DNA from: an uncultured cyanobacterium
Lineage (GTDB): Bacteria > Cyanobacteriota > Vampirovibrionia > Vampirovibrionales > JAGQHJ01
Length of the DNA stretch: 64,000 bases
NCBI GenBank assembly: GCA_937922745.1
Contig: CALAJO010000033.1
Location: forward strand, 2,250 to 66,249
Direction of reading: 5' to 3'
Shown: piece after piece, positions 10,192-26,422 of the stretch
How the letters are laid out: each line of letters opens with the position of its first letter
Position numbering within the stretch: the stretch's first letter is position 1
Made by a program: the position numbers and the translations under genes
The notes under the pieces: generated by a model
Seen by the model: only the letters and a program-made list of their open reading frames with translations
What the model was told of the DNA's origin: nothing
Databases searched by the model: none

Positions 10192-10270
10192 GCCTTTACC
10201 GCGTGCGCAAGGCACTTTAAAAATAATGCGTTTTTAATTCCGGTAACCTTCTTAAAGAAGGCTTAAAAAA

Positions 10271-10315
10271 TGGTGGGCGATGACGGGCTCGAACCGCCGA
10301 CATCCTCCTTGTAAG
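10271..10315 (-). pseudogene. 3' half (nt 32-76, with CCA) of the host tRNA-Val(UAC), displaced by prophage insertion (attL)
   Basis: Minus strand reads CTTACAAGGAGGATGTCGGCGGTTCGAGCCCGTCATCGCCCACCA. It pairs perfectly with the 5' half at 53060-53022 (acceptor GGGCGAT/ATCGCCC). Confidence 0.9.
10308..10315. repeat. attL core (CTTGTAAG, the anticodon-loop sequence)
   Basis: Identical 8-mer to 53022-53029. Sequence identity between the two junctions stops exactly at its edges. Confidence 0.8.
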
Positions 10316-11532: not shown

Positions 11533-12406
11533 AGCTGGTTTTCATGGCCTCAATGACCTCCTCTTCAGAAGTTTGGCAGTAGGACCGGGTAGTGGTAATC
11601 TCCCGATGCCCACAGGCAATCTGAAGATAAACCAGGGGAACTCCGTTACGGACATTGATGGTCACAAAAGCCCGTCTCAAGGCGTGGGGTGAAACTGTTA
11701 CATTCACCCTACGCCCTAATTTTTGGAGCCGCTGGTAAAGTCCACTACGGCACAATGGCTTTCTTAAAGAGTTCTGGAGGAGAATATCGCTTGGCTTCAT
11801 GTGAGGACGAACTTTCAGGTAGTTCTCCAAAGCCAGCATCAGCCCATCACCGATACCCACTTTGCGTTCTTTACCCCACTTCCCACACCGGACCTTGAGG
11901 CGTCGGTCTTCAAAGTCGATGTCCTCCAATCTGAGGTCACAAGCTTCTGAGGCTCGCAAGCCCGTGGAGGCCAAGAGAATCATCAGCAACCGATCCAGAG
12001 GGTTCTTACAGGCTCCAATGAGTCTTTGGACATCCCCTTCCTTCACCGATAGTCGTTTGGGTGGCTTGTGAGGCTTTGGCTTGATACTTTTGGCCTTCTC
12101 CAAGAAGGAGGGATGAAGAGTCCCTTCTTGAACCAGGAACTTCCCAAAGCAGATTATGGCCCGATGGACCGATTTCCGTTTGGCAAACTGATCCGCCTTG
12201 ATGGAGGCCAGCTCTGTCTTAAGGTTCTCAAACGAAACCTGCCCATATCGCTCCAGGAAGAGGGTAACGTAGTAGCAATACTGGTTGTAAGTATGCCTAC
12301 TAAAAGGACGACCGGTCATCAAACCGGTCGCCATCGCTTTCTGCCAATCTTCAAAGTAGTCCGAATGTTTTCGGAACAGCTTGAAATTTTGCATAAATGA
12401 CTCCAT
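11516..12406 (-). CDS. Tyrosine recombinase, paralogue of Int1 without the HTH domain (Int2)
   Basis: ASTGLRASEA, HALRRAFVT and GHREITTTRSY are present. It aligns by eye with Int1 over the core-binding and catalytic domains. The 3' ends of the two genes overlap by 17 bp. Confidence 0.85.
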   Translation of the reverse strand: MESFMQNFKLFRKHSDYFEDWQKAMATGLMTGRPFSRHTYNQYCYYVTLFLERYGQVSFENLKTELASIKADQFAKRKSVHRAIICFGKFLVQEGTLHPSFLEKAKSIKPKPHKPPKRLSVKEGDVQRLIGACKNPLDRLLMILLASTGLRASEACDLRLEDIDFEDRRLKVRCGKWGKERKVGIGDGLMLALENYLKVRPHMKPSDILLQNSLRKPLCRSGLYQRLQKLGRRVNVTVSPHALRRAFVTINVRNGVPLVYLQIACGHREITTTRSYCQTSEEEVIEAMKTSFTNFS

Positions 12407-12480
12407 ATAATGTTTTTTAAGTAATATAAGTTAAAGCTGATATGAGGATTTATCTGGCCCAGTAAAGCCGTTTATGGTAC

Positions 12481-12864
12481 ATGTCACTTAGTAAAGCTAT
12501 TATTGGAATTTGTGACATGCCAATCACTGATGATTCAAAGGCTAAGTTGAAAAATCGCCTTGTTAAAGCAATGGGTCATCTCAATGCTGTTCACCGAATG
12601 GTGGATGAAAAGCGCTACTGTATTGATGTTTTGCACCAGCTTAAAGCTGTGCAGGCAGCTTTAGATAAGGTGTCAGAGGAGATTTTGAAGCAGCACCTGG
12701 AGACCTGCGTTGTCGATGCCGTAAGAAACCAGGATGAACGTCGGGTTATAGATGAACTGGTACAAGTCTTTCGGCGGGCACCCCAACTTGATGTTTCGGT
12801 TGAAGATTTGAATATGATTTTCTATCAGAAGGAATGTTGCCATTCATCCCCACCGGGGGGTTAG
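12481..12864 (+). CDS. CsoR/RcnR-family metal-sensing transcriptional repressor with a C-terminal ECCH extension
   Basis: LKNRLVKAMGHLNAVHRMVDEKRYCIDVLHQLKAVQAALDKVSEEILKQHLETCV carries the C...H-x3-C ligand pattern of Cu(I)-sensing CsoR. An alternative start is at 12517. Confidence 0.8.
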   Translation: MSLSKAIIGICDMPITDDSKAKLKNRLVKAMGHLNAVHRMVDEKRYCIDVLHQLKAVQAALDKVSEEILKQHLETCVVDAVRNQDERRVIDELVQVFRRAPQLDVSVEDLNMIFYQKECCHSSPPGG

Positions 12865-13026
12865 CTTACTTGTCGGTTTTATTTCGGCTAGTGTAAGAAA
12901 ACTGGGAATAATCCTGAGAGGTACTTAACGTGTTTTGTGCTATTCACTGCCTAATCTGTCAGATGATGCCTGTATCTATTCCATTGCTCCTGGCTGTTAC
13001 GGGCTTTGTTTCTGCAAGACATTGTA

Positions 13027-14094
13027 ATGGTTGTTTCAGAAACCATGGCAAACGATTTTCAGTTAAGTAGCCCAGGCTACCAAGCCGAACTGAAAGCATT
13101 GCAAGATGCTGAAAAAGGCTTGGTATTCCAGTATCAGTGCAGGTTGTTTTCAGATTTTTTCCGTTCAGTATGGTTTAGAAATCCTTATACAATCCGAAGC
13201 CTGCCGGAAACAATACACAAACTTCGATTTTCATTCAAGTTTTCAGATCTACAACAAAGAAGAGCCTTGTTTAATTATCAAGCCAGTAAGGGAATGCCTC
13301 TATCCGAGAGTTTTATGGACAGCTTTCTTCCTTACCGGGCAGGCATCCGTTACAGCCCGGAATTCATGAAAGTTTATGAAAGCTATTTGGAAAGATTATC
13401 CAGGCAATTTCTGTTTTTCAAGGTGACGTACTATCCTCATTGTTGCGAGAAAGTCCCCCTTACAGACTGGTCTTCTATTCACCTATTTTGTGCCCAAGTC
13501 CTGGAAGTTTTTCGAAACCGACTTGATCTGGTGGACAGGCTACTCACGCAATGCCCGCATGGCTTTCACATTCAGTTCTGTACACAGACCTTGCGAACCT
13601 ACTTTGATCCGGGTTATATCCAAATCAACCCGATCGTTTTATGGGGAGAAACAACTTCTGAACAATCCCCAGGGGTGACTCACGCCATGTTGCACTTGTT
13701 AAGCCAAGGGCAGGATGGCAAGCAAACGGATTTTCTTCCTGATATGACGGATGCACAGCGCCATACAATTCGAGCGTTGAAAACACGTCTTGAACAACAG
13801 TTTGCAAAACAAGATACAGGTATCATGAGTGTTTTTCGAACGCTATTGACAAACAACACAACGATTGGCTTTAACGGGTATGCGTTCTTGGACCAGCAAG
13901 CTGAGTTTTTGACTACAGCAATTGAAAACTGTCTGAAACAACCAGAAGCAGTTCAGCAGACCGAAGCAGGTAAAACCGTATTGGATTTCTTTAGCGGGTA
14001 TTTCCGATGGGAGGAGCATGCTATCCGCAACGAAGAAAAATCGAGTTTTCATGAAGTTGGATTTTGTGATAAACTGACCCCATTAGTAAAATAA
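13027..14094 (+). CDS. Hypothetical Cys/His-rich protein (contains HCCEK)
   Basis: 362-aa ORF in the track (TTG 13006), with the first ATG at 13027. No family recognised. Contains YYPHCCEKV, CPHGFHIQFC and THAMLH. Confidence 0.5.
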   Translation: MVVSETMANDFQLSSPGYQAELKALQDAEKGLVFQYQCRLFSDFFRSVWFRNPYTIRSLPETIHKLRFSFKFSDLQQRRALFNYQASKGMPLSESFMDSFLPYRAGIRYSPEFMKVYESYLERLSRQFLFFKVTYYPHCCEKVPLTDWSSIHLFCAQVLEVFRNRLDLVDRLLTQCPHGFHIQFCTQTLRTYFDPGYIQINPIVLWGETTSEQSPGVTHAMLHLLSQGQDGKQTDFLPDMTDAQRHTIRALKTRLEQQFAKQDTGIMSVFRTLLTNNTTIGFNGYAFLDQQAEFLTTAIENCLKQPEAVQQTEAGKTVLDFFSGYFRWEEHAIRNEEKSSFHEVGFCDKLTPLVK

Positions 14095-14115
14095 ACAGAC
14101 AAGAGAGGTGATTCG

Positions 14116-14292
14116 ATGAAACTCCAATTCTCAGGCGCTATTCAGCAAGCTCAACAAGCGCTAGCTGGCTTTGTGAAACAGGCTCCTGCTAATACTTCAC
14201 AGAATCAGGGAGCCAATTTGCATTTCAACGGAATCAAGGCAAAACCTCAACTGAAGGCAGATGCTGTCCGATTTGGCGGTTGTTGCGGATAA
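14116..14292 (+). CDS. Small protein (58 aa) ending in ...VRFGGCCG
   Basis: Own translation: MKLQFSGAIQQAQQALAGFVKQAPANTSQNQGANLHFNGIKAKPQLKADAVRFGGCCG. RBS is AGAGAGGTGATTCG. It is below the ORF-track size cutoff and a terminator follows. Confidence 0.4.
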   Translation: MKLQFSGAIQQAQQALAGFVKQAPANTSQNQGANLHFNGIKAKPQLKADAVRFGGCCG

Positions 14293-14314
14293 GTTATCCA
14301 GGAACCCTATTAAC

Positions 14315-14346
14315 AAAAAAGGGACGCTGTTTAGTGTCCCTTTTTT
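14315..14346. terminator. Bidirectional intrinsic terminator between convergent cargo units
   Basis: The hairpin AAAAAAGGGAC-GCTGTTTAGT-GTCCCTTTTTT serves the plus-strand 58-aa gene. It also serves the minus-strand 87-aa gene, whose stop lies in the loop. Confidence 0.6.
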
Positions 14347-14594
14347 CCTTTTTGCTGAACCTTTTCCCGCCCTTGGCTTGTTGCAAAGAACCGGGGAGGT
14401 GGCCCTCCTTGTACTTGAGCATCGCCTGTTTCTTGTAGTTGAGACACGTCTCGAATAAATTCGTCCATTTCTATTTGACCTGGATAAGACTGCCGGGCTT
14501 GATAGAAGGTAATTGCACCAGGTTGACTCGCCAATGTTTGTAAGGTTTTGTCGACTTGGCCAAAGTGAATTGATTGAACAGCTTTGATATTCAT
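14331..14594 (-). CDS. Small hypothetical protein (87 aa, N-terminal SIHFG motif)
   Basis: ATGA start/stop overlap with the upstream 113-aa gene. Begins MNIKAVQSIHFGQ... Confidence 0.45.
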   Translation of the reverse strand: MNIKAVQSIHFGQVDKTLQTLASQPGAITFYQARQSYPGQIEMDEFIRDVSQLQETGDAQVQGGPPPRFFATSQGREKVQQKGKKGH

Positions 14595-14932
14595 GAGTTA
14601 CTTCCGTCCTGTTTTCTCTTTTTTCGTCTCTCAGTAAGGCAAGCCATTTCACCGCCATTGTTAGAAGAAGGGGATCTTTTACCGCCACCGTTACCACCTT
14701 CACAGCAACTATGCCCAATGGGTGCGGGAGAAACTGGAGCTGAGGTATTTAAGAAAGCTTTAGCTGGTGAAGCAAACATTAGAACTACTCCCATGAGCAT
14801 GACGGAAAAAACGGTGCGTATAGGCTTATGTGTTTTGGAAGTGCTTCCTGTAAAATGAATATTCGAAGAAATCGTTCTCGTTGGTGAAGCAAAGGTTTGA
14901 GTCTTTAAAAAAGAATGTTTGGTAACTCTCAT
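14591..14932 (-). CDS. Small membrane-anchored protein (113 aa) with SCCEGGNGGG motif
   Basis: ATG start, one hydrophobic helix (VFSVMLMGVVLMFA), then PIGHSCCEGGNGGG. The N-terminal part contains NIHFTG. Confidence 0.5.
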   Translation of the reverse strand: MRVTKHSFLKTQTFASPTRTISSNIHFTGSTSKTHKPIRTVFSVMLMGVVLMFASPAKAFLNTSAPVSPAPIGHSCCEGGNGGGKRSPSSNNGGEMACLTERRKKRKQDGSNS

Positions 14933-15005
14933 TAATCTTTCTCTTCATACCTGTATAACTACATTGTCTGAGACTATCGTAAACTATCCAAGTTGATTGG
15001 AAAGC

Positions 15006-15024
15006 TAACCCCTGGGTAGGGATA
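15006..15024. promoter_or_regulatory. Candidate CsoR-type operator (TAACCCCTGGGTAGGGATA)
   Basis: GC-rich pseudo-palindrome; its reverse complement TATCCCTACCCAGGGGTTA has the TATCCCT-N5-GGGGWTA pattern. It is 74 bp upstream of the 113-aa gene and is a near copy of 16759-16777. It resembles known CsoR boxes (TACCC..GGGTA type). Confidence 0.45.
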
Positions 15025-15066
15025 CTATTTTAGAAATACGGTAGTATAAACCCAATAAAACTAACC

Positions 15067-15471
15067 CTAATCCGACTTAGAGGCGGTAAAGATACGCTTT
15101 AAATCTTTCCAAAACCCAGTAAAGAGATGTTTAAACCAGTCGATGACTGATCGGAGCCAGCTTTTTTGGGGTTGGGTAGATTGGGTTTTGGGGCTTGCTT
15201 TAGAGGTTTTGTCAATCGTACAGGAATCTCCTTTGCAAACCGGCTCGATAGGAGAAGTTTCCATAATTTTGGCATTGGGTTCAGACATTCCTGCACAGCA
15301 CCCCTTGCCGGGGTTGAGATAAAAATTTCGGCAGCAAGGTGGTAAGGTTTCCCAAGCTTTCTTGAACTTGGCTGGCACATGTTCCGGTGGAGGAGGGATC
15401 TCTTCCTTGCCAAAGCGAACGTTAGAATTTTTCGAAGCAATAGCAGACGAAAATATTACACTATGAGGCAT
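15067..15471 (-). CDS. Cys-rich small protein (134 aa; PPCCRN and KGCCAG motifs)
   Basis: ATG start overlapping the upstream gene by 11 nt. Two vicinal Cys pairs plus CKGDSC. The N-terminus contains NVRFG. Confidence 0.5.
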   Translation of the reverse strand: MPHSVIFSSAIASKNSNVRFGKEEIPPPPEHVPAKFKKAWETLPPCCRNFYLNPGKGCCAGMSEPNAKIMETSPIEPVCKGDSCTIDKTSKASPKTQSTQPQKSWLRSVIDWFKHLFTGFWKDLKRIFTASKSD

Positions 15472-16432
15472 TGTTGGATGCCCCCGTATTATTGCCGAAA
15501 TGAGCCTTTATCCAGTTGCCAAAACCTCCCACAATATCTCCCAGGAGGCTGATACATATTACATTTCCACAGCCACAGTTTGCACCGACTATCATTGAAC
15601 CAAACATGACATTTTTCCCTTGTTTTGCCGTTGCCTGCGCCGCCTTTCCCAAAATACCCCATCGCCCTATGGCGTTAACCACTTTGGGGAACACCAGGAT
15701 ACTTGCCAATGTAAACCCAGTGGATACGATGATTTTAGTTACCAATTTTGGAATTTTGGCCTCTTCTTCCAAAGGAGAAGCGATTTTTTGATCCACATAA
15801 TTTGCAGCAGAAACCACACCAGCAACCAACGGTGCCATGATTCCTAATTCAATAAAATACCGCTTAGAGAAGCCAACCATTAATGCGTGGATTACCCCAA
15901 CCGTTTCCATTGCCTGGAGCCATACGGGGGGTTTCCAATCCATTCCTTTATTTAACTGATTGACAGCCAGAATGCCAGTCGCCACTCTCAGATAGGCTTT
16001 CCAGTCCGTAGGTAACAAGGAACGTCCCGGAAGTGTACGGACAGGCAATTGATGCGTCAACATACCAATTGTGAATAGCATGGCAGCCTCAGCCAGATAA
16101 CGCCACCGCATACTACTTTGATGTGTCGGTAAGGTGCAGTGTTTTTCAGAGCAAGACTCTTTCTTAATCTGGGCAATAGGCCGATAAGAAGAGTGCACCT
16201 TAAGGCCAGTATGGTTTTGCGTATTTATGCTGGAAATACCGACTTTAGCTGTGGGCTTTGGCTGTGATATAGAGGGGTAGAAGGTCTCGAATCTGGGTTG
16301 CGACAAAGTTGTATATGGAAGAGCGGCTTGAAGTTGATTGTTAGCAGGCATAGCAAAAGAACCTGGGTTAGTATACCAGCCAGGATAAGCAGAATAGGAC
16401 TGTGCAAATGCACTAAAGGGTGCTGCGCTCAT
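15461..16432 (-). CDS. Polytopic membrane protein (hypothetical; C-terminal CGCG and AHFG motifs)
   Basis: Start moved to the ATG at 16432, preceded by GAGGAGGAAAG. Several hydrophobic helices are visible (LAEAAMLFTIGML, VATGILAV, METVGVIHALMVGF, LGIMAPLVAGVV, IIVSTGFTLASILVF, MFGSMIVGANCGCGNVICISLLGDIVGG). Confidence 0.6.
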   Translation of the reverse strand: MSAAPFSAFAQSYSAYPGWYTNPGSFAMPANNQLQAALPYTTLSQPRFETFYPSISQPKPTAKVGISSINTQNHTGLKVHSSYRPIAQIKKESCSEKHCTLPTHQSSMRWRYLAEAAMLFTIGMLTHQLPVRTLPGRSLLPTDWKAYLRVATGILAVNQLNKGMDWKPPVWLQAMETVGVIHALMVGFSKRYFIELGIMAPLVAGVVSAANYVDQKIASPLEEEAKIPKLVTKIIVSTGFTLASILVFPKVVNAIGRWGILGKAAQATAKQGKNVMFGSMIVGANCGCGNVICISLLGDIVGGFGNWIKAHFGNNTGASNNAS

Positions 16433-16697
16433 CTGGCTTTCCTCCTCTCTTATCCTCTTGTAGCAAGTTTGTTTGATCAACAGCCTTCGGTTTTCTCCTA
16501 AGCTTGGATAATACCCAAGTTACTCCAACCCCGACTGTTCCGCTTCCCGCAAGCATCATTAGAATCTCCAAAATGGAATGCGCTTCGTTGTGATGACCAA
16601 ATCGGGGTAGCTGGTGACGGGTAGGCACTATATGAGAGCTTTTCTTGGGAAAAGCAAGCCTCTCATCAGAATGTAAAGACAAAGATTGTACTATCAT
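16413..16697 (-). CDS. Small membrane protein (94 aa, RFGHHNEAH motif)
   Basis: ATG start with one TM helix (ILEILMMLAGSGTVGVGVTWVL). It is the first gene of the unit behind the 16759-16777 operator. Confidence 0.4.
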   Translation of the reverse strand: MIVQSLSLHSDERLAFPKKSSHIVPTRHQLPRFGHHNEAHSILEILMMLAGSGTVGVGVTWVLSKLRRKPKAVDQTNLLQEDKRGGKPDERSTL

Positions 16698-16758
16698 CTG
16701 GTACTCTTGGATTAATGTAATAACTTCTATGTTAGTCGTTCAAAGAAATTCCAAAAGC

Positions 16759-16777
16759 TATCCCTGGGGTGGGGATA
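16759..16777. promoter_or_regulatory. Candidate CsoR-type operator (TATCCCTGGGGTGGGGATA)
   Basis: The arms TATCCC/GGGATA are inverted repeats around a G-rich spacer. It is 62 bp upstream of the 94-aa gene, preceded by AAAGCTA as at 15001. Confidence 0.45.
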
Positions 16778-16826
16778 ACTGGCACATCTTTAACACACAT
16801 GTTATGTTTTACGGAAAAGTATCAGA

Positions 16827-18578
16827 TTAATCAAAATGAAAACCAAAAAGACCCCCATCTTCACGATCAGAAAGTTTAGTTTCTAATATATATTCTTCGA
16901 GATTAAATCCATCAGAAAGTCCATCTGATGGTAAATCATCGGAATTCATTGTAACAATATATTGAACACCCAGTTCTTGACACTTTTGGTGTCCTATTTC
17001 AAGGGCTTTGGCTTTCTGACGTTCATCGACACCATCAAAGAGATGGCTATCATGGATAAGAAAACCGGGGCCGGGATGATGCTTTTGTGTTAATTCAAGT
17101 AACATCATATCGAAGCAAAATATTTTCATATTGCTAATCCCCTTGCTTCTGGAGGAGTCTAGCTTTACATCAAAGTGGGGACCATTTTCAGTAGGATCAA
17201 TAATTAAACTTCCAGCCTTTTCATATAGAGCATTGGATAATCTCTCAAAAATCAGAATGGCTTCTTTTCTAATATCGTCACGCTCAATGTAATCGTCTTG
17301 AAGCTGACGAGAAAGCTGTGCCCGTTCTATTTTTAGCGTGGTGGAGTCACGTTCAACCTGTTCTGCCACTTTTAATTTTTCGCTTAAGTGCTCAGCTTCG
17401 CCTCTTAGTCTGCTAAATTCCTCTTGAAGTTTCGTAAAATGGTCCAAAGCACCACCAGAACGTAATATCTGCATAATCTCGGATCTTCTTTTGTCCAGGG
17501 CAGCCTTTTCTCGGTCCCGATCCGAGATTCTGGTATTTACAGAAGTTATTTCTGAGCGTAAGTGAGCTTTTCTATTGGAAACAATTTTTTCATGAAATTC
17601 TTTGACATCTTCAAACCGTCTTATAATTTGATCAGGTAGAATTATACCTGCTTCTTCGTATAGTTTTTCCAAACTGGTAAAAGCGGGTTCTTGTTCTTGC
17701 GTAAGGCTGTCTTGAAGTTTGGATAATAGTTCTCCGTCTAAAGTATTATCGCTTGATAACTTCCCAATTTCTTTTGTTAGTTTAGAAGCCTCTTTTTCAA
17801 GCTCCTTATATTCAGGAACCACTTGAAATGATTCCAACTGCTCATACAGACTTTTTACCTTATCTTCAACAATGGTTAGTCGAGTTTTCAAATCCGAGGA
17901 TGAACTTAAAACTTCAGGCATATTGCCGGATTTTACTATCTTTTTAAGTTCTTTTATTCCCTTTTCTTTATCCCTAATTTGTTGGAAAGCCTGTGCAATA
18001 GACCAGTCAAGGCCAATTAAATAAGATATGCAAACCTGCTCATCCCAGGCTTGAGGCGTTTGATTACAGGATGTTGGAGAGGAGAAGCCTCCATCATTCA
18101 CACGTCTTGCAAAATAAGGAAAAAGCTTTCTAAAAGTTGGTTTATATTTGGATTGATCCTCTGTTGCCAAAGGGAAGTCAAACATGTAATAACCAAGCAA
18201 CTGTTTCCAGTTGTCATTTGTGATGTTATATTCGGTTTTACCCTTGGTGGGTTTAATGGGCCAGTCAGAATAATCCTGATTCGACAGATAAACCTTGCCA
18301 GAGTTCTTTCCAGAACGGCTAACCTCAATGGCTTTTCCAGCTAAGTCAAATTCAAGTAAAAATCTATAATCTTCGAGTTTTTGGTGAGAAAAAATAGTGT
18401 CCTTAACATTTGATCCCAACAAGAAATGAATAAGTTCAACAAAACTGCTTTTACCTGCTCCGTTTCTCGATTGGCGATCTGTTGCCCCTTTACTCTTTTC
18501 TGCTAATAAAATATTCAGTCCAGGATTGAATATTAAGGTTTTAAATGACTCAAGGTCACTGGAAACTTTCATAATCAT
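16827..18578 (-). CDS. ABC-type ATPase with long coiled-coil insert (DUF2326/YydD-like), ATPase component of an ABC-3C-type system
   Basis: Walker A is SRNGAGKSSF near the N-terminus. A ~300-aa heptad-rich region rich in Glu/Lys/Leu follows. Walker B/D-loop is PGFLIHDSHLFDGVD near the C-terminus. Confidence 0.75.
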   Translation of the reverse strand: MIMKVSSDLESFKTLIFNPGLNILLAEKSKGATDRQSRNGAGKSSFVELIHFLLGSNVKDTIFSHQKLEDYRFLLEFDLAGKAIEVSRSGKNSGKVYLSNQDYSDWPIKPTKGKTEYNITNDNWKQLLGYYMFDFPLATEDQSKYKPTFRKLFPYFARRVNDGGFSSPTSCNQTPQAWDEQVCISYLIGLDWSIAQAFQQIRDKEKGIKELKKIVKSGNMPEVLSSSSDLKTRLTIVEDKVKSLYEQLESFQVVPEYKELEKEASKLTKEIGKLSSDNTLDGELLSKLQDSLTQEQEPAFTSLEKLYEEAGIILPDQIIRRFEDVKEFHEKIVSNRKAHLRSEITSVNTRISDRDREKAALDKRRSEIMQILRSGGALDHFTKLQEEFSRLRGEAEHLSEKLKVAEQVERDSTTLKIERAQLSRQLQDDYIERDDIRKEAILIFERLSNALYEKAGSLIIDPTENGPHFDVKLDSSRSKGISNMKIFCFDMMLLELTQKHHPGPGFLIHDSHLFDGVDERQKAKALEIGHQKCQELGVQYIVTMNSDDLPSDGLSDGFNLEEYILETKLSDREDGGLFGFHFD

Positions 18579-18823
18579 TGTTTAACCCTCTTTACCAAGA
18601 GGCCACGTTCAAAGGTAATAGCGTCCAGTATAAAAAGTAAATCTATGGAAAGGATGAACCAGTCATAGTTAATAGGTGATTTTTGTCTTTGATGGGGAAT
18701 TGTTTTTCTGAATTCATCCCAAACCTTGGAAACCGTTTTTGGACGGTTTAAAAGCCGTAGAATTTCAGCACCCACTGAAATCAAGGCTCTGTCAGTTTTA
18801 AGATGCTTAGTTGGTAATATCAT
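18575..18823 (-). CDS. Small helical 'middle component' of the ABC-3C-type system
   Basis: 82 aa with 4-nt start/stop overlaps to both neighbours. Size and position match the three-component architecture. Confidence 0.55.
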   Translation of the reverse strand: MILPTKHLKTDRALISVGAEILRLLNRPKTVSKVWDEFRKTIPHQRQKSPINYDWFILSIDLLFILDAITFERGLLVKRVKQ

Positions 18824-19728
18824 ATTGCCTCCTTTGCATCTTCAAAAATGTCACAACGCTCGAAAAAATAACTCATAACGGCCAGTATTGCTGCTTCTCT
18901 AAGAGGCACATGTCTTTCTGAGCCACCAGTAAAAACTTGGAGAGCACGGAATATATCATCAGAAGATGAACCATGGGATTTCAACACTTGGTAGTAATCC
19001 CTGTAGCTTTGCGCTATTTGTTCTCCAAAGTCGGGATCAGGGTAGCCATTAAAAAACTGTTCAACAAGGTGTTCTTTCATCCGTCCGTGTCGCAACAGGA
19101 CTTCTACATCATATGATAAGCCATTAGCTTGTAATTTTTCCAGAGACGGAGCAGTAACTGGATAATTAGGATCCGGTTTATTTTTTTGTATATGGTCTAA
19201 AACAGGTTTTATATCATCAAATGTTAGGGTTTGAACTTGTTGAGAAGTGGGCATGGCTCCAAAAAGCTCGATTAGACGTTCCCTAGGAAGAAACAAAATT
19301 GTTTCTCTTATACTTTCATAACCAAAAACGCCAACAGAAATGACGGGTTCATTACCGTCCAGAGTATTTAAATGACGTACTACATCAGGGGGTAAAGAAC
19401 GCTGGTTGGTAACAAATCTCCAAACAGCCATCTCCGTCCAATGTGTTTTTGCTCCCGTAAAGTCTTCACCTATCTTTGTAAGCGTATCCCTTTGATCCAT
19501 TAACCCCTGGGGAGCATAACATTGATAGACAGTTTGCTCGGACTGCAAATACCCATCACACTTTCGGTCACCAATATTACCGTAATTCCTAACGACTATA
19601 AAATCGTCACCGTGCCTCATCAACATGAATCTTTCAAAAAAGCTTTGGAACTCATTGCCATGTTTTTCACAGCAAGCAAGTCTTATGTGTAGGCCATAGA
19701 AGCTTTTTTCCAATTCATCCATCATCAA
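18820..19728 (-). CDS. Putative effector component of the ABC-3C-type system
   Basis: 302 aa and first gene of the trio. The N-terminal NIGDRKCDGYL...VYQCY is reminiscent of an Mrr-like nuclease core, but the canonical Lys is not evident. Confidence 0.5.
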   Translation of the reverse strand: MMMDELEKSFYGLHIRLACCEKHGNEFQSFFERFMLMRHGDDFIVVRNYGNIGDRKCDGYLQSEQTVYQCYAPQGLMDQRDTLTKIGEDFTGAKTHWTEMAVWRFVTNQRSLPPDVVRHLNTLDGNEPVISVGVFGYESIRETILFLPRERLIELFGAMPTSQQVQTLTFDDIKPVLDHIQKNKPDPNYPVTAPSLEKLQANGLSYDVEVLLRHGRMKEHLVEQFFNGYPDPDFGEQIAQSYRDYYQVLKSHGSSSDDIFRALQVFTGGSERHVPLREAAILAVMSYFFERCDIFEDAKEAI

Positions 19729-19841
19729 GAACTCTTTTAGCCTGCCTTAAAACCACTTTTCTCTTATAAGGGACCACTTCCCCCACTCTATCAAGGGTAT
19801 TACAAATTGGTCTCCAGGCCAAGAGGAACTAGAGTTCCAGC

Positions 19842-20588
19842 CTATGATGGCTGTAAGATTAATGGTTGTTTTTTCTTGAAATCATAGTCCTTTGCTCTAA
19901 GGATACGGGAAACTTGGGCATGGCAAAGGGCCTCACTCTTGCTGTAACCTGCCTTAACAAATGCCTGTAATACATTTTCCCATGTTGCCCCTTTATCCAG
20001 GATATCAGCAGCCTTCTTGGGACCAATGCCAGGACACCCGGAGTAGCCGTCGGAGGAGTCTCCCGTCAGTGTCTGGAAGAAATGCCAGTAATCGGCTTCT
20101 TCTTCAGAGATTGAGTAGACACCCAGTTTCGGTTTATTGGTGTTGTAGTGAAGGCCGGGGACGGTCTTGAGGTCCTTATCGATAGACACGATGACTTTCT
20201 CTCCCTTGATGATCTTCTCCGTGGTAGCCAAGATTCCCAGGACATCATCACCCTCCAGGCTAGGACGTTCGTAAGACTTGTATTGGGTTTCCAGATGCTC
20301 CCGAAGTTCTCTCAGAATGATGGGTTTCCTTACCTTGTCTCTCCCCGCCTTATAGGTAGGCAGGATTTTCTTACGGAAGTAGTTTCGGGTTCTGTCAGAC
20401 AGAGCAATGACCAACTGATCTGCTTTCAGGTCTTCCTTGAGGCCAGCCAGGAAGTTGTCCATCTTGGCTTTGGCTTCCTTGCCATCGGCACGCAGGGTCC
20501 AGAGATCATCGCCCCAATGGATTGGGGTTTCGGCTGCCGTGGCGAACTGATAGGCCACGACATCGCCATCAATCAGTAGAGTTCTCAT
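19842..20588 (-). CDS. 5'-3' exonuclease / flap endonuclease (T7 gp6 analogue)
   Basis: From MRTLLIDGDVVAY (RBS GGAGAAATAACA): SIDKDL, and the H3TH motif GDSSDGYSGCPGIGPKKA. Confidence 0.85.
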   Translation of the reverse strand: MRTLLIDGDVVAYQFATAAETPIHWGDDLWTLRADGKEAKAKMDNFLAGLKEDLKADQLVIALSDRTRNYFRKKILPTYKAGRDKVRKPIILRELREHLETQYKSYERPSLEGDDVLGILATTEKIIKGEKVIVSIDKDLKTVPGLHYNTNKPKLGVYSISEEEADYWHFFQTLTGDSSDGYSGCPGIGPKKAADILDKGATWENVLQAFVKAGYSKSEALCHAQVSRILRAKDYDFKKKQPLILQPS

Positions 20589-20590
20589 TG

Positions 20591-21130
20591 TTATTTCTCC
20601 AAAGCTTTTACCAACAGGTGGAATCCGCTCCAATCAAACACCCGATACCCTTGCCACTCTTTGTTGTAAGGGGAGTCAAAGCAAATGGCTGTTCCATCAG
20701 GATAGGCTTTTTGCCAAGCTTCCAAGTTGTGCAAGCCATCGTCTAGCAAGACATCCCCTTGAATCAGTTCCTTGCGTTCGGCAAAGATAACGCTACTGAG
20801 GGGGAAGCCGGGTAAGTGGCGTTCTATCCACTTGCGTTTGTCCTCATGGCCGTACTTGCAATGGGTCACAAAGACCACATCATGGCCTTCCTGGATAAGC
20901 GTTTTCAGGGTGGAAAGGGCTCCAGGTATCGGTTCCAGGTGAAGGAAGAAGCCGGGGTCTTTGAGGAATTCTTCTACCTGGGCCTGGGTGAGATGAGGGG
21001 TCATCTTATGGATGTACCAATCAGTGACCTCCTCAGGCTTCAGATGGGTTCCATAGTAGCGGTTGATGAGGGACAACCAGTAAGGAACGAGATCCGCTGT
21101 TACCCCATCCATATCAATCAGGAGACGCAT
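20591..21130 (-). CDS. HAD-family 5'(3')-deoxyribonucleotidase
   Basis: Motif I is LIDMDGV. The overall pattern (...HLEPIPGA...VFVTH...DDG...) is typical of phage/cellular dNMP nucleotidases. Confidence 0.75.
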   Translation of the reverse strand: MRLLIDMDGVTADLVPYWLSLINRYYGTHLKPEEVTDWYIHKMTPHLTQAQVEEFLKDPGFFLHLEPIPGALSTLKTLIQEGHDVVFVTHCKYGHEDKRKWIERHLPGFPLSSVIFAERKELIQGDVLLDDGLHNLEAWQKAYPDGTAICFDSPYNKEWQGYRVFDWSGFHLLVKALEK

Positions 21131-21426
21131 CGGTCATCGGTTCCTATGGATTTGATTTCGTAAGCCAGGAGGAACAGGATGCCACAGCCCGCATGGGCCA
21201 AGTGGCTCAAGCCGGACTCAGGATCTCTATCCTCTCCTTGCATCCAGGCAAACAGGTGGCGAAGGATGCCCCCTACCAGACGGGTCCACTCCATCCCTTG
21301 ACGCCAGTTGTACCGTCCATATTTCTGAGCCCCGAAGGCCAGGACTTTGCCTACTTCAATCAGGGACTCAAAGGGCAGTAGTTCCAGGGGCACTTTGTCT
21401 GAATCGAGCTTTAATGCTTTTGACAT
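21118..21426 (-). CDS. MazG-like nucleotide pyrophosphohydrolase (DUF5664-type dATP/dGTP diphosphohydrolase-like)
   Basis: DSDKVPLELLP...GAQKYGRYNWRQG...HLFAW...DPESGLSHLAHA recalls the phage family annotated this way. The assignment is from memory only. Confidence 0.5.
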   Translation of the reverse strand: MSKALKLDSDKVPLELLPFESLIEVGKVLAFGAQKYGRYNWRQGMEWTRLVGGILRHLFAWMQGEDRDPESGLSHLAHAGCGILFLLAYEIKSIGTDDRCVS

Positions 21427-21428
21427 GA

Positions 21429-21911
21429 CTAGCCCTCCGGGTAATCCAAAAATCGGTGATCATCAAAGAGATGAACTTCCCGATGGCAGTTGGAGCAAAG
21501 CAGGTGGCATTTCTTGGCCTCTTCCCGGATGTAGGTCCAGGTTCGACCGGAAAGGATGTAGCCACTGAGCCTGCTTTCCTTGAATTTCGGGTCCCGGTGA
21601 TGCACATCAAACACTTGCGGGTGATAAGCCCGTTTACATCGTTCGCATTGGCCACCCAGAAGGGCCACCAGTTTGCATTTGACATAGGCTCGGCGCTTGT
21701 TCTGGTATTCGTTCCGGCTAGTGGGTTTCCGACCAGTTCTGTCCAATCTTGTACTCTCCTGTGATGGGGCATCGAAAATTGAAGTGCTGTCCGGCACGTT
21801 CGAAGCACCGGACGGCGATTTGTCCGATTTCATGGGCAAGTTCCTCTTTGACTTGAAGTTGGATTTCATCGTGAATATGGGCCACCTGTGCCCAATCCCG
21901 TCCCCAGACAA
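21429..21911 (-). CDS. HNH endonuclease
   Basis: CERCKRAY...DVHHRD...CSNCHREVH is an HNH/zinc-finger core. The longest ORF overlaps the DNAP 3' end by 194 nt, so the true start is probably internal (e.g. 21833). Confidence 0.7.
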   Translation of the reverse strand: MSGDGIGHRWPIFTMKSNFKSKRNLPMKSDKSPSGASNVPDSTSIFDAPSQESTRLDRTGRKPTSRNEYQNKRRAYVKCKLVALLGGQCERCKRAYHPQVFDVHHRDPKFKESRLSGYILSGRTWTYIREEAKKCHLLCSNCHREVHLFDDHRFLDYPEG

Positions 21912-23514
21912 AGCCCTTTTGGGTCAGTTCCTGGTAGAGAAACACGGTGGCTTGCTTGACCAGCAAGGCCCCTGCCGATTGAAGCAAGGTGTTTAATGCG
22001 GAATGTTGAGAACGAATATGCAGGTGACGGCCATCCAGGCCCTTGAGATAGCCTCGTTTTTCAATCGTTTTGGTGATTTCGTCCTTGAGCTGTCTAAGGG
22101 CAGGCGTTCTAGCCAGAAAGCGTTTCTTTAAGAATCTGCCGTCTTTGCCCCCCTTGCCTATAATGCTGCCGATCTTGGCGTCACCGGCTCCGTACAGGAA
22201 GGCGTAAATAAACTTTTTGGCTTGTTCCCGTGTTGGAAGCCCGGCAGCCTTTTGGTTGGCAACGTGGATGTCACCCTCTAAAAGTTCCTTGGCATAAGCG
22301 CCGCCATCATAACGAGCCATGTAATGAGCAAGGCAACGAAGCTCCAAGCTACTTGCATCAGCACCGAGGAGACAATAACCGTCAGGCACGGTAAAAAGAC
22401 TTCGACATTCTTTTCCATAAGGCACTCCTTTGGCAGGCACTTGGGCAATGTTGGGATACTTATGGGTACAGCGGCCTGTAACAGCTCCGTTGGTCACCAC
22501 TTGCCCGTGAATCCGGCCATTCTTTTCCATCTTGAGCCAAGCCTGTTGGCCTTCTGAAAGTTGGCCGATGCGTTTTTGAATCATCAGATATTCAGCCAAC
22601 AGCTTAGCTTCTGGCCATTCCAGCTTGTCTAGGAGGGTTTCGTCCACCTTGGGCTTACCGTCTTCGGTAAATTCAGAGGGCTTCCAGTCTCGTTGGGCTT
22701 TGAGTCTTAAGGCAATGTGGTCCCGGCTGCCGGGGTTAAACTCCACCCGCTTGACCTTTTCAGTGGGAATGCCCTTCCGGTAGCCCAGCTTGGTGTTGTT
22801 TACCTTTGGGACAAATTGGGTTCGTTCTTCCCACGCCGGGAAATAGCTTTGAATCTCCTGTTCCAGTTCCATCCGGCGCTGGCAGAGTTGAGAATAGAGT
22901 TTCTGAGCGGCCATCCGGTCAAAGCAGAAACCATGTTGCTCTTGTTTGAACAGGATGTGGGCAAAGTCATGTTCCAGTTGAATGGCTTGTTCACTGTATT
23001 GCTTGGATTGAAACTTCTTCCAGAGAGCATAAGTAACCCGTGTATCCTGTTCGCAATAGGCTTGCATGGCTTCGGACCAGTGGGACCAATCCCCAGATTG
23101 CTTAAACTCTCCCTTCAACACCCCCAGTCGATATCCCCAGGCTTCCAGCGAATGTCTTCCAATCATCTTGGTGGGGAAGTCCGGGGTCTTTTGGCGGTGC
23201 TTGAAATCTCGCTCGTTGAGATCCGTATAAATCAAGCGGCTGATGACGATGGTATCCCGGATCTGCCCTTGAGGCTGAAACCAGGGATAAAGCTTCTGGA
23301 TGGCTGGGATGTCAAACTTGATGATATTGTGACCGACGATGAGGTCCGCCTTCATGAGTTCACGAAGACCCTCTTCAATCGTCATCACAAAGGCGTATTT
23401 GTCGGGAGGACAGCTTATGATGTCCACTGTATCCAGATCCAACAGCACCAAGCAGTGAATCTGAGTTAAATCCTCCAAAAGACCGTCGGTCTCGATATCG
23501 AAGATGTATCGCAT
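21718..23514 (-). CDS. Family A DNA polymerase with 3'-5' exonuclease (T7 gp5 analogue)
   Basis: ExoI is FDIETDG. Motif A is GADASSLELR, motif B is REQAKKFIYAFLYGAG and motif C is HIHDEIQL. Confidence 0.95.
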   Translation of the reverse strand: MRYIFDIETDGLLEDLTQIHCLVLLDLDTVDIISCPPDKYAFVMTIEEGLRELMKADLIVGHNIIKFDIPAIQKLYPWFQPQGQIRDTIVISRLIYTDLNERDFKHRQKTPDFPTKMIGRHSLEAWGYRLGVLKGEFKQSGDWSHWSEAMQAYCEQDTRVTYALWKKFQSKQYSEQAIQLEHDFAHILFKQEQHGFCFDRMAAQKLYSQLCQRRMELEQEIQSYFPAWEERTQFVPKVNNTKLGYRKGIPTEKVKRVEFNPGSRDHIALRLKAQRDWKPSEFTEDGKPKVDETLLDKLEWPEAKLLAEYLMIQKRIGQLSEGQQAWLKMEKNGRIHGQVVTNGAVTGRCTHKYPNIAQVPAKGVPYGKECRSLFTVPDGYCLLGADASSLELRCLAHYMARYDGGAYAKELLEGDIHVANQKAAGLPTREQAKKFIYAFLYGAGDAKIGSIIGKGGKDGRFLKKRFLARTPALRQLKDEITKTIEKRGYLKGLDGRHLHIRSQHSALNTLLQSAGALLVKQATVFLYQELTQKGFVWGRDWAQVAHIHDEIQLQVKEELAHEIGQIAVRCFERAGQHFNFRCPITGEYKIGQNWSETH

Positions 23515-23524
23515 ATCGAGACTC

Positions 23525-24082
23525 CTATATGTTTATGTCACATTGAATCTCATTGCCCCAGCTATCCCAGCCAGATCGTTTCTGACGGGCAAATAGTTCC
23601 AGCTTTTGAGCATCAGGATACATAGCTTCAATTCGTTCATACTGCTCATCCGGCTTTCGGGAATGCTCTCGACGGGGTGAGAGGATGAGGCTGGAAATGG
23701 TATTGACTGTCGGTTTTACCACCGGGCCTTTGGTGGCCAGCAAGCAGACTTCCGCATTGCTTTTGGTGTAATAGCCAACGCCAAAGAAGGGTGTTTGAGA
23801 CTTGGGGTTCAGCTTGCACCAAGTAAAGCCAATGGTTTTGTATTGGAAACCCCAGGCTTTTATGACTTCCAGGGCATCTTCCAGCATGGGGAATGTCGCC
23901 CAGAGAAACAGGATGCAACCATTGGGATCGGCCAGCTCACCTACCGGCAAGTTGCAGATGTCCTTGGTGGACATCAGGTCATAGTGACCGCAAGCACCTC
24001 CCCGGAATCGGGTTTTGTGGTTGGCTCTGGAATTGTATCTCCAAGGCGGATCCGCCAGGATGACCTGATACTTAGTAGTCAT
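23525..24082 (-). CDS. MT-A70-family N6-adenine DNA methyltransferase
   Basis: The catalytic motif is ILADPPWRY. Its size and remaining sequence fit the MT-A70/Dam-like phage methylases. The start is uncertain (24097, 24091 or 24082). Confidence 0.85.
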   Translation of the reverse strand: MTTKYQVILADPPWRYNSRANHKTRFRGGACGHYDLMSTKDICNLPVGELADPNGCILFLWATFPMLEDALEVIKAWGFQYKTIGFTWCKLNPKSQTPFFGVGYYTKSNAEVCLLATKGPVVKPTVNTISSLILSPRREHSRKPDEQYERIEAMYPDAQKLELFARQKRSGWDSWGNEIQCDINI

Positions 24083-25667
24083 CCCCACCATCTCCACCGG
24101 ATTCCAAGAATGGATTCTCTTCCGTTAAGCGACCTGTTTCCGGGATGTAGCGAAGGTAACAGGTTACGCCTGTTTCCCCACTGAAACGGTTTTTCAGGAC
24201 TCGAACCAAGGTCACGTTGGACTCCTTGGTATCCTGTTGGTTGCGTTCCAGGCCAATCACCAGATCCGAAAGCTGGGCAATGCCTGCTGAACCTCGTAAT
24301 TGAGACAGGGAGGTTTGGGCTCCTTCCTCATGGCCTTTGTTGCCTTCCGGGCGTTTGAGGTGGGAAATGAGAATTAATCCAACACCCAGTTCTTCCACCA
24401 GGGAGCGCAATGCCGTCATCGTGTTATCAATAATCCGGCGTTCGTCCCCTTCACTGAGACCGGAAATCACAATGGACAGGTGGTCCAGGATGATCCAGTT
24501 GCAATCGAATCCACGGGCCAGGAAGCGAATCCGACGAACCAGGTTTTCGCTATCCAAAGATCCGAAGTGGTCATAGAAAAAGACCCTTCCAGTTCCGAGG
24601 GTTTGGTCAAAGGCCAAGCGGAGGTCTTCATCACTGACCCCACCTCGATCCAGGTGCAACGGTTTACTGAGATGAAGACCCATGAGCCCCAGGGCCGTCC
24701 GCTTGACGTTTTCTTCCAGGGCAATGTAACCAACGGTTTCGCCCTGCTGAATCAAATGATAGGCGATCTCTCGACACGTCAGGGACTTCCCGATTCCGCT
24801 GCCTGCCGTAAATGTCACCAGCTCCCCTTTTCGTAAGCCGTGGGTTTTGGTATTCAGTCCAGGCCAAGGATAGGGAATGGCTTGGGCATCATCATCCTGG
24901 GTGACGACCTCCCAGAGTTCATTGCCTGAGACAATGCCATCCGGGCGGAAAGTTCTGGCCTCCCAGATGGCATCCAGAAGTTCCTTACCACGGCCCGCAA
25001 CCAACATATCATTGGCATCCTTAAGCGGTAGCGACGCAATCTTCGCTTTGCCGGGGCTGAGTAGTAAGGCACATTCGGCGGCAGACTCACGACCTTGTTT
25101 GTCGTTGTCAAACATGAAAACCACCGTCTCAAATTGCTCAAGCCAGTCCAGATTTCGTTGAATAGCCTTCTTAGCGCCTTGAGCGCCATTTGGGACGGAG
25201 ACAACCGGCCACCGATGGTTTTGAAGTTGGGATACGGATAAAGCGTCAATCTCTCCCTCGGTGATCACCACCATCTTCCCGCCATCCCGCCAGAGCCATT
25301 GGCCGTAAAGGCTAACGGCTTGGGGATTGCCCAGGAATTTAAACGTCTTGTCCGCAAAACGGATCTTCTGGGCAATGACATCGCCTTTGTAATTCCGGTA
25401 GTTGGCAATCTGAACCGGTTGGCCCTGGAAGTGTCCCTGTTGGTAATCCCATTTGGCACAACTGGCCAGAGTCAGACAGCGCTTTTTAATTTCTCTGCAT
25501 TCTCCGGCTACCGGATTAAATCGGCGTTGGGGACGGTGACGATGTTTGAGTTTGGATTCCCAGTAGTTACAACCGGGTGTGAAACATTTGGCGTGACCAT
25601 CCGGCCAGCGGCTCAAATTATCAATACTGCCGCAAGCTGGACAGGGTTCGTGTTGAACGGCTTCCAT
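24072..25667 (-). CDS. Bifunctional primase-helicase (T7 gp4 analogue)
   Basis: Zinc ribbon CPACGS...CFTPGC, TOPRIM (ITEGEIDALS...FDNDKQG), helicase Walker A FTAGSGIGKS and Walker B ILDHLS. The ATG at 25667 is preceded by AGGAG. Confidence 0.95.
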   Translation of the reverse strand: MEAVQHEPCPACGSIDNLSRWPDGHAKCFTPGCNYWESKLKHRHRPQRRFNPVAGECREIKKRCLTLASCAKWDYQQGHFQGQPVQIANYRNYKGDVIAQKIRFADKTFKFLGNPQAVSLYGQWLWRDGGKMVVITEGEIDALSVSQLQNHRWPVVSVPNGAQGAKKAIQRNLDWLEQFETVVFMFDNDKQGRESAAECALLLSPGKAKIASLPLKDANDMLVAGRGKELLDAIWEARTFRPDGIVSGNELWEVVTQDDDAQAIPYPWPGLNTKTHGLRKGELVTFTAGSGIGKSLTCREIAYHLIQQGETVGYIALEENVKRTALGLMGLHLSKPLHLDRGGVSDEDLRLAFDQTLGTGRVFFYDHFGSLDSENLVRRIRFLARGFDCNWIILDHLSIVISGLSEGDERRIIDNTMTALRSLVEELGVGLILISHLKRPEGNKGHEEGAQTSLSQLRGSAGIAQLSDLVIGLERNQQDTKESNVTLVRVLKNRFSGETGVTCYLRYIPETGRLTEENPFLESGGDGGDDY

Positions 25668-25686
25668 AAAGCTTGCTCCTGTCTGC

Positions 25687-25729
25687 AAAAAGAAAAAGAG
25701 GGCAGCCTAAGCAACGCTCAAACTGCCCT
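25687..25729 (-). terminator. Intrinsic terminator after the alpha/beta-hydrolase gene
   Basis: Minus strand reads AGGGCAG-17 nt loop-CTGCCCT followed by CTTTTTCTTTTT. Confidence 0.5.
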
Positions 25730-25754
25730 TCAGGGGGTTAGCGAGGAGTATGGG

Positions 25755-26411: not shown

Positions 26412-26422
26412 ATAGCGCTCTC

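Follow-up and report, generated by a model that had tools for sequence, protein, structure and literature searches.

Defense systems of the ABC-three-component (ABC-3C) type have been predicted since 2020 and are equated in the literature with the Lamassu or DdmABC family. Several Lamassu-family systems mediate anti-phage abortive infection, among them Lamassu-Mrr of Escherichia coli O150:H5 SE15, in which defense depended on each of the three components, ATPase, effector, and LmuC (Millman et al. 2022). The Lamassu system DdmABC acts on plasmids as well as on phages. In the cryo-electron microscopy structures of 2025, one LmuA monomer is held by its C-terminal domain in a LmuB dimer together with LmuC, and according to the activation model of the same year, LmuA is set free once a DNA end has been bound and then forms an active tetramer. 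Short Lamassu systems (PNAS, PMC12663957; preprint 10.1101/2025.04.02.646746) possess a LmuB of about 600 residues with an intact Walker A motif, a Walker B motif of the form hhhhD[Q/S/T/E], and zero to two zinc hooks, and their effectors include Mrr. Lamassu has been proposed to be derived from SbcCD. The locus compared here to these systems is located in a window of 64,000 nucleotides, the whole stretch of DNA that was analyzed, from contig CALAJO010000033.1 of an uncultured cyanobacterium of the Vampirovibrionales. It contains three genes at positions 16827 to 19728, which probably form a Lamassu-family (ABC-3C) anti-phage or anti-mobile-element system of the CTD10/MC6/DUF2326 branch, carried by a temperate T7-like phage.

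All three genes are located on the minus strand: the effector gene (18820-19728) for an LmuA-like protein of 302 residues, the gene for an LmuC-like middle component of 82 residues (18575-18823), assigned by its Pfam domain MC6, and the gene for an SMC-like ABC ATPase of 583 residues (16827-18578), which is LmuB-like and, by its Pfam domain DUF2326, of the DUF2326/YydD type. The open reading frame (ORF) of the effector opens with TTG-ATG-ATG and was read from the TTG start; a public gene call (P0001) takes the second ATG, two codons later, as its start and yields 300 residues. Adjacent ORFs overlap by 4 nucleotides each, at 18820-18823 between effector and MC6 and at 18575-18578 between MC6 and ATPase. 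An earlier note, made from the letters of the sequence alone, had listed these three ORFs with their lengths and overlaps, and its coordinates were exact.

Conservation of the trio was evaluated in 80 loci with an effector homologue, sampled from GTDB species representatives (one genome per species). The gene order effector-MC6-ATPase was kept in all 80 of them, across many phyla, with an MC6 homologue in the middle position each time and the ATPase present wherever the contig continued, so that the three genes do occur together in other genomes, as the ABC-3C assignment of the earlier note had implied. An overlap of 4 nucleotides of the ATGA type was kept at 71 of 79 junctions between effector and middle component and at 72 of 75 junctions between middle component and ATPase. 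Because order and overlaps are conserved across the loci, the trio is a strictly co-inherited, translationally coupled operon. In two loci (L073, 9148-10218, and L077, 9154-10551), the ATPase alignment ends early despite a continuing contig, which suggests possible pseudogenes, and in one lineage (P0123 and the P0005 locus), MC6 and ATPase were called as one protein of 670 residues.

In a large protein collection, relatives of the effector formed 205 clusters and those of the ATPase at least 1,962 clusters. When one genome per species was scanned, effector relatives turned up in 176 of 185,579 species (about 0.1%), with at most 48% identity to the effector of the window; Alphaproteobacteria, Acidobacteriota, Spirochaetia, Chloroflexota, Myxococcota, and Latescibacterota were among them. 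The only relatives of the effector on viral contigs of IMG/VR (L085, 10001-12886, and L086, 10001-12637) display 26 to 27% identity. There, ATPase-like and MC-like genes are located on the opposite strand and convergent with the effector, which is a different arrangement and that of a distant ABC-3C-like system.

The ATPase matches Pfam DUF2326 in the C-terminal half of its head (4.6e-44). The PADLOC model PDC-M68B covers the full-length protein with 2.2e-170, and the Lamassu LmuB model PDLC03859 reaches only 1.2e-11. The Walker A motif N39-G-A-G-K43-S (residues 39-44) and a signature-like S478-K-G (residues 478-480) are conserved. The Walker B motif, F506-L-I-H-D510, is followed by S511 at the position where the catalytic glutamate is expected, and H509, D510, and S511 are invariant. 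A Walker B motif of the form hhhHDS was present in 68 of 72 ATPase homologues and a zinc-hook CxxC in the coiled coil in none of these 72. In the AlphaFold 2 (AF2) model, with a mean predicted local distance difference test score (pLDDT) of 83.2, the head is split, and the helices 192-294 and 316-451 are located between its halves, with the coiled coil spanning about residues 192 to 451. All traits published for the LmuB of short Lamassu systems were found in this protein. By these motifs, the protein is an SMC-like ABC ATPase of the short-LmuB type: Walker A is intact, a serine takes the place of the glutamate in Walker B, and a zinc hook is absent.

A Foldseek search of the Protein Data Bank (PDB) with the ATPase model gave YydD of Bacillus subtilis as the best match (9a6c_A, from an integrative YydD-YydB model; 1.3e-25, TM score 0.55). 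Five LmuB chains of Lamassu complexes were next (9uxh_F, 9hqx, 9nyg_B, 9hqu, and 9ux7; 1e-13 to 7e-11), and SMC heads, Smc5/6, Rad50, JetC, and MukB were ranked below LmuB. YydD is likewise a DUF2326 protein, with 586 residues, but it shares only 19% identity with the ATPase of the window, and it is paired with YydB, an effector protein of another kind. A search of the literature on YydD/YydB, YydBCD, and DUF2326 found nothing functional. JGI lists relatives of the window ATPase as "YydD (DUF2326 family)," and proteins of the CTD10/MC6/DUF2326 branch are already labeled "ABC-three component system protein" by NCBI. None of the three proteins belonged to an NCBIfam family, no equivalog match came near its cutoff, and sequence and profile searches against PDB chains gave no informative match for any of them.

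The middle component matched Pfam MC6 (PF20293, 2.5e-19), and its N terminus MILPTKH, W35, and W55 are conserved. It had no match among the PADLOC models or PDB sequences, and a profile comparison of MC6 with LmuC of SE15 found nothing.

The effector is composed of two domains in its AF2 model (pLDDT 82.9, predicted TM score 0.81). The tail is a Pfam CTD10 domain (PF20275; residues 172-296, 1.5e-18, 68 bits compared to a cutoff of 28.1), which ends in the invariant SYFFERCDIFED and was matched by all 46 effector homologues of the family alignment. CTD10 also matches the apex of the ATPase coiled coil (residues 285-395, 5e-14), and does so in all relatives. A paralogous origin of effector tail and ATPase coiled coil was considered and dropped, as hhalign and hmmsearch between both family alignments found nothing.

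In the head of the effector, the signature G53-D54-x-K56-C57-D58-G59 ... Q69-C70-Y71 is invariant in the alignment of 46 homologues, as are K85, D89, and N108. In the N-terminal domain of the model (about residues 1-165), helices and strands succeed one another as in the restriction-endonuclease fold: D58 is located just before the second strand (59-61), Q69-C-Y71 closes the third strand (66-71), and D54, D58, and Q69 occupy canonical positions of a PD-(D/E)xK nuclease. All top Foldseek matches are nucleases of this fold (EcoT38I, the nuclease domain of Avs4, Mus81/XPF/ERCC1, Can2, and EcoO109I), albeit weak ones. The structure prediction that had been recommended in the earlier note thus delivered two domains and an endonuclease-like helix-strand order with a weak Foldseek result. 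The canonical lysine of the triad is replaced by the invariant Tyr71, for which the invariant K56 or K85 could stand in, as judged from the alignment.

The PADLOC models PDC-M68A match residues 162 to 297 of the effector, that is, the tail only (4.1e-22 and 4.7e-15). Because these models lack the head of this effector, the head differs or is swapped. The PADLOC LmuA model PDLC03852 matched the head (residues 23-109) of the window protein with 9e-4 and the head of 38 of the 46 family members, with 3.4e-6 as the best value. The validated LmuA of SE15, with the sequence taken from the supplement of Millman et al., matched the same model over its full length with 1.4e-105. In a comparison of the effector family with the single SE15 LmuA sequence, hhalign gave no significant result and aligned only the YQC core. 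A relationship of the head with LmuA of SE15 Lamassu-Mrr is therefore suggested, weakly but repeatedly, by the model PDLC03852. No Pfam domain, neither Mrr_cat nor another nuclease model, was matched by the head of any of the 46 family members. The sequences nevertheless indicate a conserved Mrr-related domain joined to an ABC-3C C-terminal domain.

A full HMMER search with the head alone retrieved 1,144 representative clusters, of which 495 had E values no higher than 1e-10. Motifs and architectures were counted in the best 150 of these 1,144 clusters. GDxK(C/N)DG...Q-x-Y was found in 127 of them and QxK in one. Twenty were proteins of 500 to 1,480 residues with the head at or near the N terminus, for instance P0261, P0282, P0286, P0289, P0319, P0343, and P0360. 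Eleven of these 20 contained a P-loop motif, ten of them about 200 to 280 residues into the protein, and these large proteins are probably sensors similar to STAND or Avs proteins, judged by their architecture; a PDB sequence search with two of the large proteins was uninformative. The CTD10 ending "SYFFERC" was present in only 12 of 130 short head relatives. Because GDxKxDG...QxY is kept across about 1,100 clusters and several architectures, it is a family signature and not the result of decay. The earlier note had called the motif "degenerate Mrr-like," which holds with respect to a non-canonical, Mrr-related motif but not with respect to degeneration. Occurrence in several architectures indicates a mobile effector module that serves several sensor types, and Cap4, Mrr, and Sir2 heads are likewise known as effector modules used with several sensor types.

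Among the validated systems, Lamassu-Mrr of SE15 displays the same order of effector, middle component, and SMC-like ATPase and a related effector head, in which the GDxxxD...YQC core aligns with that of the window family. The aligned core reads YQCK in SE15 but YQCY in the window. The SE15 LmuA has a weak Mrr_cat match and a CTD6 tail instead of CTD10, the middle component is an MC2 protein of 168 residues instead of an MC6 protein of 82 residues, and the SE15 LmuB matches PDLC03863 and contains a CxxC (CSLC), in contrast to the DUF2326/PDC-M68B ATPase without CxxC. The solved Lamassu complexes, DdmABC/LmuACB of Vibrio cholerae, LmuACB of Salmonella, and LmuAB of Bacillus, use Cap4 heads with CTD7-MC3 or CTD12. 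They share with the window the operon logic and a short ATPase of the LmuB type with about 600 residues and a Walker B motif without glutamate, and LmuB of V. cholerae also has no zinc hook; their LmuB chains are the best structural matches of the window ATPase other than YydD. They differ in an Mrr-related instead of a Cap4 head and in that CTD10 and MC6 are other families, which have no solved representative.

PDC-M68 of PADLOC originates from a screen for embedded genes ("guilt by embedding"), in which a cassette of two families was "assigned as candidate" (Payne et al. 2024). PDC-M68B spans the ATPase and PDC-M68A the effector tail, but MC6 is outside the PADLOC definition and the effector head is not part of the models. 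The ABC-3C/Lamassu family is a known family, understood mechanistically for other branches, and the branch present here is cataloged as the candidate PDC-M68. An "uncharacterised" mechanism, as the earlier note put it, can no longer be claimed for the family, with its validated systems, its structures of 2025, and its activation model, but only for the CTD10/MC6/DUF2326 branch. Other assignments of that note were borne out: an ABC-3C architecture by the family-model search (CTD10, MC6, DUF2326, and PDC-M68B), an ATPase of the DUF2326/YydD type with NGAGKS, FLIHDS, and a long coiled coil by Pfam, motifs, and the AF2 model, and its distinction from housekeeping SMC, RecN, or RecF proteins by the best structural matches, YydD and then LmuB.

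The trio is located inside a T7-like prophage of 42.5 kb, which is bounded by attachment (att) sites at a gene for tRNA-Val. The left site attL (10266-10315) is a copy of the 3' half of this tRNA gene and is 92% identical over 50 nucleotides to 52763-52812 (repeat family D5); the right site attR (52763-52843, minus strand) is within the intact tRNA-Val(TAC) gene (52768-52843), as found by ARAGORN, Rfam, and the repeat pair D5; tRNAs were all that Rfam detected. A 31-mer search for the att repeat gave two matches compared to none expected. The T7-like genes include a single-subunit RNA polymerase, a primase-helicase, Pol A, and an exonuclease, and the structural genes a portal, tail tube proteins, an internal virion protein, a fiber, and a large terminase. 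Two genes for tyrosine recombinases are located next to attL: 10411-11532 on the plus strand, with the Pfam domains HTH_17 and Phage_integrase, and 11516-12406 on the minus strand, assigned by Pfam. This integrase pair (10411-12406) is conserved in L127 (94% identity at the amino acid level), L172, L002, and the P0416 contig. On the other side of the cargo, the conserved backbone genes reach as far as the gene for the phage 5'-3' exonuclease (19842-20633, minus strand; Pfam 5_3_exonuc_N and 5_3_exonuc), and the effector gene starts 113 nucleotides past the exonuclease stop codon on the same strand.

Between exonuclease and integrases, a variable cargo interval of about 7.5 kb (12359-19873) contains the trio, a gene for a CsoR-like metal-sensing repressor (12481-12864), and six orphan ORFs: 13006-14094 and 14116-14292 on the plus strand and 14331-14594, 15067-15471, 15461-16480, and 16413-16697 on the minus strand. 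The GC content is 0.385 in the trio, 0.436 in the cargo interval, 0.49 to 0.50 in the phage arms, and 0.51 in the host flanks; at third codon positions (GC3), the trio reaches 0.31 to 0.34 compared to 0.55 to 0.58 in the neighboring phage genes. The content of the interval is exchanged between related prophages, which were found by protein look-ups; a metagenome scan with the exonuclease gave only relatives of at most 53% identity and no sister prophages. In the sister prophage L127, the DNA polymerase is 95% identical to that of the window. The backbones share 85 to 90% nucleotide identity from window position 33418 to 19874. They match once more across the integrases (12358 to 11061), and the interval between these two stretches is unrelated. 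The exonucleases of the sister prophages are 63 to 84% identical to that of the window. Their cargo comprises a CD-NTase with SAVED (the anti-phage system CBASS), a helix-turn-helix/M78 pair, and a BsoBI-type restriction-modification (R-M) system in L127 (13642-20499; exonuclease 84%); an AAA_15/21 ATPase, a C5 methylase, a T5orf172 protein, a DEAD helicase, and an MmeI-type R-M system in the P0416 contig (72%); BrxL and PglZ of BREX in L171 (10756 to the end of the locus; 67%); an outer-membrane factor and RND-type (metal) efflux genes in L170 (10841 to the end of the locus; 72%); and only two small genes, followed by the integrase pair, in L172 (10777-11336; 63%). In more distant colinear T7-like contigs, the exonuclease gene is followed by the portal gene without such cargo.

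The interval between exonuclease and integrases is thus a cargo hotspot of this temperate T7-like phage lineage. A trio of 79% nucleotide identity was found in a different element, whose integrase pair is related, beside a Type ISP restriction enzyme, a helicase of 1,624 residues, and HipA. Neighborhoods of more distant relatives were mostly rich in mobile or defense genes; they contained an integrase, MobA, and an Eco57I R-M system, or Tn3, an OLD-type ATPase, ParDE, and MmeI, or DruA, reverse transcriptases, and transposases. From its composition and its distribution, the trio is recently acquired, horizontally gained cargo in a defense hotspot of the phage lineage, and as swapped cargo in such a hotspot, it lends support to prophage carriage and a defense role. 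The earlier note had placed the trio on a prophage, directly downstream of the exonuclease gene, and had proposed recent acquisition from its AT-rich composition. The att-bounded element, the distance of 113 nucleotides on the same strand, the GC and GC3 values, and the absence of the trio from a sister prophage with a backbone of 85 to 90% identity agree with this. A position of the trio in a separate tandem island instead of among the prophage cargo was rejected: there is no third att copy inside the element, and backbone and integrases are syntenic around variable cargo in the sister prophages.

Since the interval is a defense hotspot, the six orphan ORFs, which gave no match to Pfam, PADLOC, or PHROG, may include new defense genes; by their location, they could be cargo or defense genes. 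A separate, tentative proposal concerns the effector head: QxY heads would be a distinct effector class, derived from Mrr but with a moved lysine or a changed chemistry. The QxY class may be deployed by Lamassu-like ABC-3C systems and by the large P-loop sensors alike.

With operon structure, domain composition, motif states, and mobility established, a mechanism can be inferred from the solved Lamassu complexes. In the resting state, two ATPase protomers together with MC6 would keep one effector monomer inactive by its CTD10 tail. The ATPase head would recognize an invader by its DNA ends or by aberrant structures in its replication, and ATP binding without efficient hydrolysis would be a one-way switch, which would be slow because the catalytic glutamate is missing. 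The effector may then be released and oligomerize through CTD10, and the assembled heads would cut DNA or other nucleic acid indiscriminately, aborting the infection. In a lysogen, this would shield the host from superinfecting phages and possibly from plasmids, and protection of the host would mean protection of the prophage. The weakest links in this chain of events are the chemistry of the head, with no canonical lysine, and the trigger.

Assignment of the trio to the Lamassu defense systems needs to consider a number of observations that weigh against it. The CTD10/MC6/DUF2326 branch has no experimentally tested member, and PDC-M68 is only a computational candidate. None of the three proteins had a sequence-level match to the solved Lamassu chains, the MC6 protein matched no LmuC model of PADLOC, and neither the CTD10 tail nor the whole effector model retrieved solved LmuA structures with Foldseek. 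The match of the head to the restriction-endonuclease fold is weak (best Foldseek E value 0.09), and the catalytic triad D...(Q/E)-x-K is not present; with a tyrosine for the canonical catalytic lysine, the effector is only a putative nuclease. In a search of viral predicted structures, Rad50/SMC-like phage proteins matched the ATPase model with about 5e-14, which is of the same order as the matches to LmuB. One of five sampled neighborhoods of relatives was purely metabolic. Replication of a T7-like phage itself generates linear DNA ends and concatemers, and the tolerance of an end sensor upon induction would be puzzling.

The state of the head is also the starting point for an alternative in which the sensor complex is Lamassu-like but the effector is not a DNase, and instead acts on RNA or a nucleotide or binds and blocks DNA without catalysis. 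An invariant tyrosine in place of the QxK lysine, with 127 QxY proteins and a single QxK protein in 150 relatives, would agree with such an effector, as would the heads of 46 members without a Pfam nuclease match and the weak support for the fold. This is nevertheless unlikely, since a validated Lamassu effector has an Mrr nuclease head to which that of the window family can be aligned, D54, D58, and Q69 are at the canonical positions in the model, K56 and K85 could replace the lysine, and the top structural matches are nucleases without exception. The trio may also serve mainly the mobile element, as an addiction or stabilization module or, like DdmABC, as a weapon against competing plasmids or prophages. 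Restriction of plasmids as well as phages by DdmABC, the presence of relatives on integrative, mobilizable, or Tn3-type elements, and the location of the window trio on a prophage are consistent with this. A main role of this kind differs from host defense in emphasis more than in mechanism, however, and it is considered improbable: the hotspot partners in the sister prophages are the classical anti-phage systems CBASS, R-M, and BREX, and no features of an autoregulation similar to that of toxin-antitoxin systems were found.

The position of the trio directly downstream of the exonuclease, on the same strand and with no terminator between them, would also be expected if the ATPase were a Rad50/SbcC-like recombination or repair protein of the phage itself and the trio supported phage replication, similar to gp46/47 of T4. 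The structural matches to viral Rad50/SMC-like ATPases mentioned above point in this direction, as does a match of phrog_5467, a PHROG of unknown function, to almost the full length of the ATPase (1.2e-55); some of the (pro)viral genomes in the PHROG set consequently encode related ATPases. Since the matches to the phage proteins are of comparable strength, LmuB-like and Rad50-like ATPases cannot be separated by the fold alone. It is the DUF2326/YydD match and the obligate partners MC6 and CTD10 that carry this distinction. An SMC-like ABC fold with an inserted coiled coil is common to the window ATPase, Rad50-Mre11/SbcCD, and phage recombination nucleases of the gp46/47 type, but the trio lacks a zinc hook, the glutamate of Walker B, and a partner similar to Mre11 or SbcD, and its context is mobile and linked to defense. 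The trio is absent from all related T7-like phages and from the closely similar backbones of the sister prophages, its composition is foreign, the strict partnership with MC6 and CTD10 is kept in non-phage contexts, and a tblastn search of 50,697 deposited phage genomes with the ATPase gave no hit. A phage repair function of the trio is therefore extremely improbable, and a Lamassu-family defense system remains the preferred explanation.

Concerning the transcription of the trio, a terminator-like hairpin is located 48 nucleotides past the stop codon of the ATPase gene (16753-16779, minus strand), with a stem of 8 bp and a loop of 7 nucleotides, followed by TTTT. A segment of 141 nucleotides with this hairpin reached -29.3 kcal/mol (z = -2.47), and the hairpin is likely the end of the operon, judged by its position and predicted fold. 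The segment of 132 nucleotides between the exonuclease gene and the effector gene displayed no significant structure (z = -0.89), so that read-through from the phage replication arm into the trio is possible. A promoter scan of the trio locus found promoter-like sites at chance level.

The replication arm (19842-32977, minus strand) and the structural arm (34396-52198, plus strand) of the prophage diverge from a central region at about 33.0 to 34.4 kb, unlike those of related T7-like contigs, in which both arms are colinear on one strand. An early gene (32081-32977) matches the anti-restriction family phrog_7245 (7.8e-87), and its L127 orthologue, with 95% identity, contains ArdcN and MPTase-PolyVal domains. 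With this gene and the trio, the prophage carries counter-defense as well as defense genes. An ORF of 190 residues after the primase-helicase gene (23525-24097) is the 93% orthologue of an L127 gene for an MT-A70 family methyltransferase, and this methyltransferase gene is conserved in all sister prophages. AT-rich repeats of about 43 nucleotides (D1) with the core ATTCAAAATTGAATTAA occupy intergenic positions at 28220-28262, 30793-30835, 31315-31357, 32971-33013, and 33020-33062; these sites of the early and replication arm may be phage promoters or operator sites. The motif AAAGTGAGTAGT (families D6 and D9) is located at 10443-10471, 33478-33506, 52717-52732, and 52877-52901, that is, close to attL and attR as well as within the central region of divergence, and its copies may be recombinase arm sites or binding sites of a regulator. 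At the right end of the prophage, the 5' half of the tRNA-Val gene is present once more (53016-53066), 176 bp beyond the intact tRNA gene. The fragments 10266-10315 and 53016-53066 overlap at tRNA positions 43 to 50, and the right boundary of the prophage or an older integration is at issue here.

The trio should be annotated as a Lamassu-family (ABC-3C) defense system rather than as a mechanistically unknown entity. It also raises the question of how a phage with linear replicating DNA coexists with a presumed sensor of DNA ends. With another tail, another middle component, and another ATPase clade, the CTD10/MC6/YydD-like branch tests the Lamassu model of sequestration, release, and oligomerization. 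For the mining of new cargo, the interval between exonuclease and integrases of temperate T7-like phages offers a small and clearly bounded target. When the substrate of the QxY head has been demonstrated, this would annotate more than 1,000 protein clusters, including those of large NTPase sensors.

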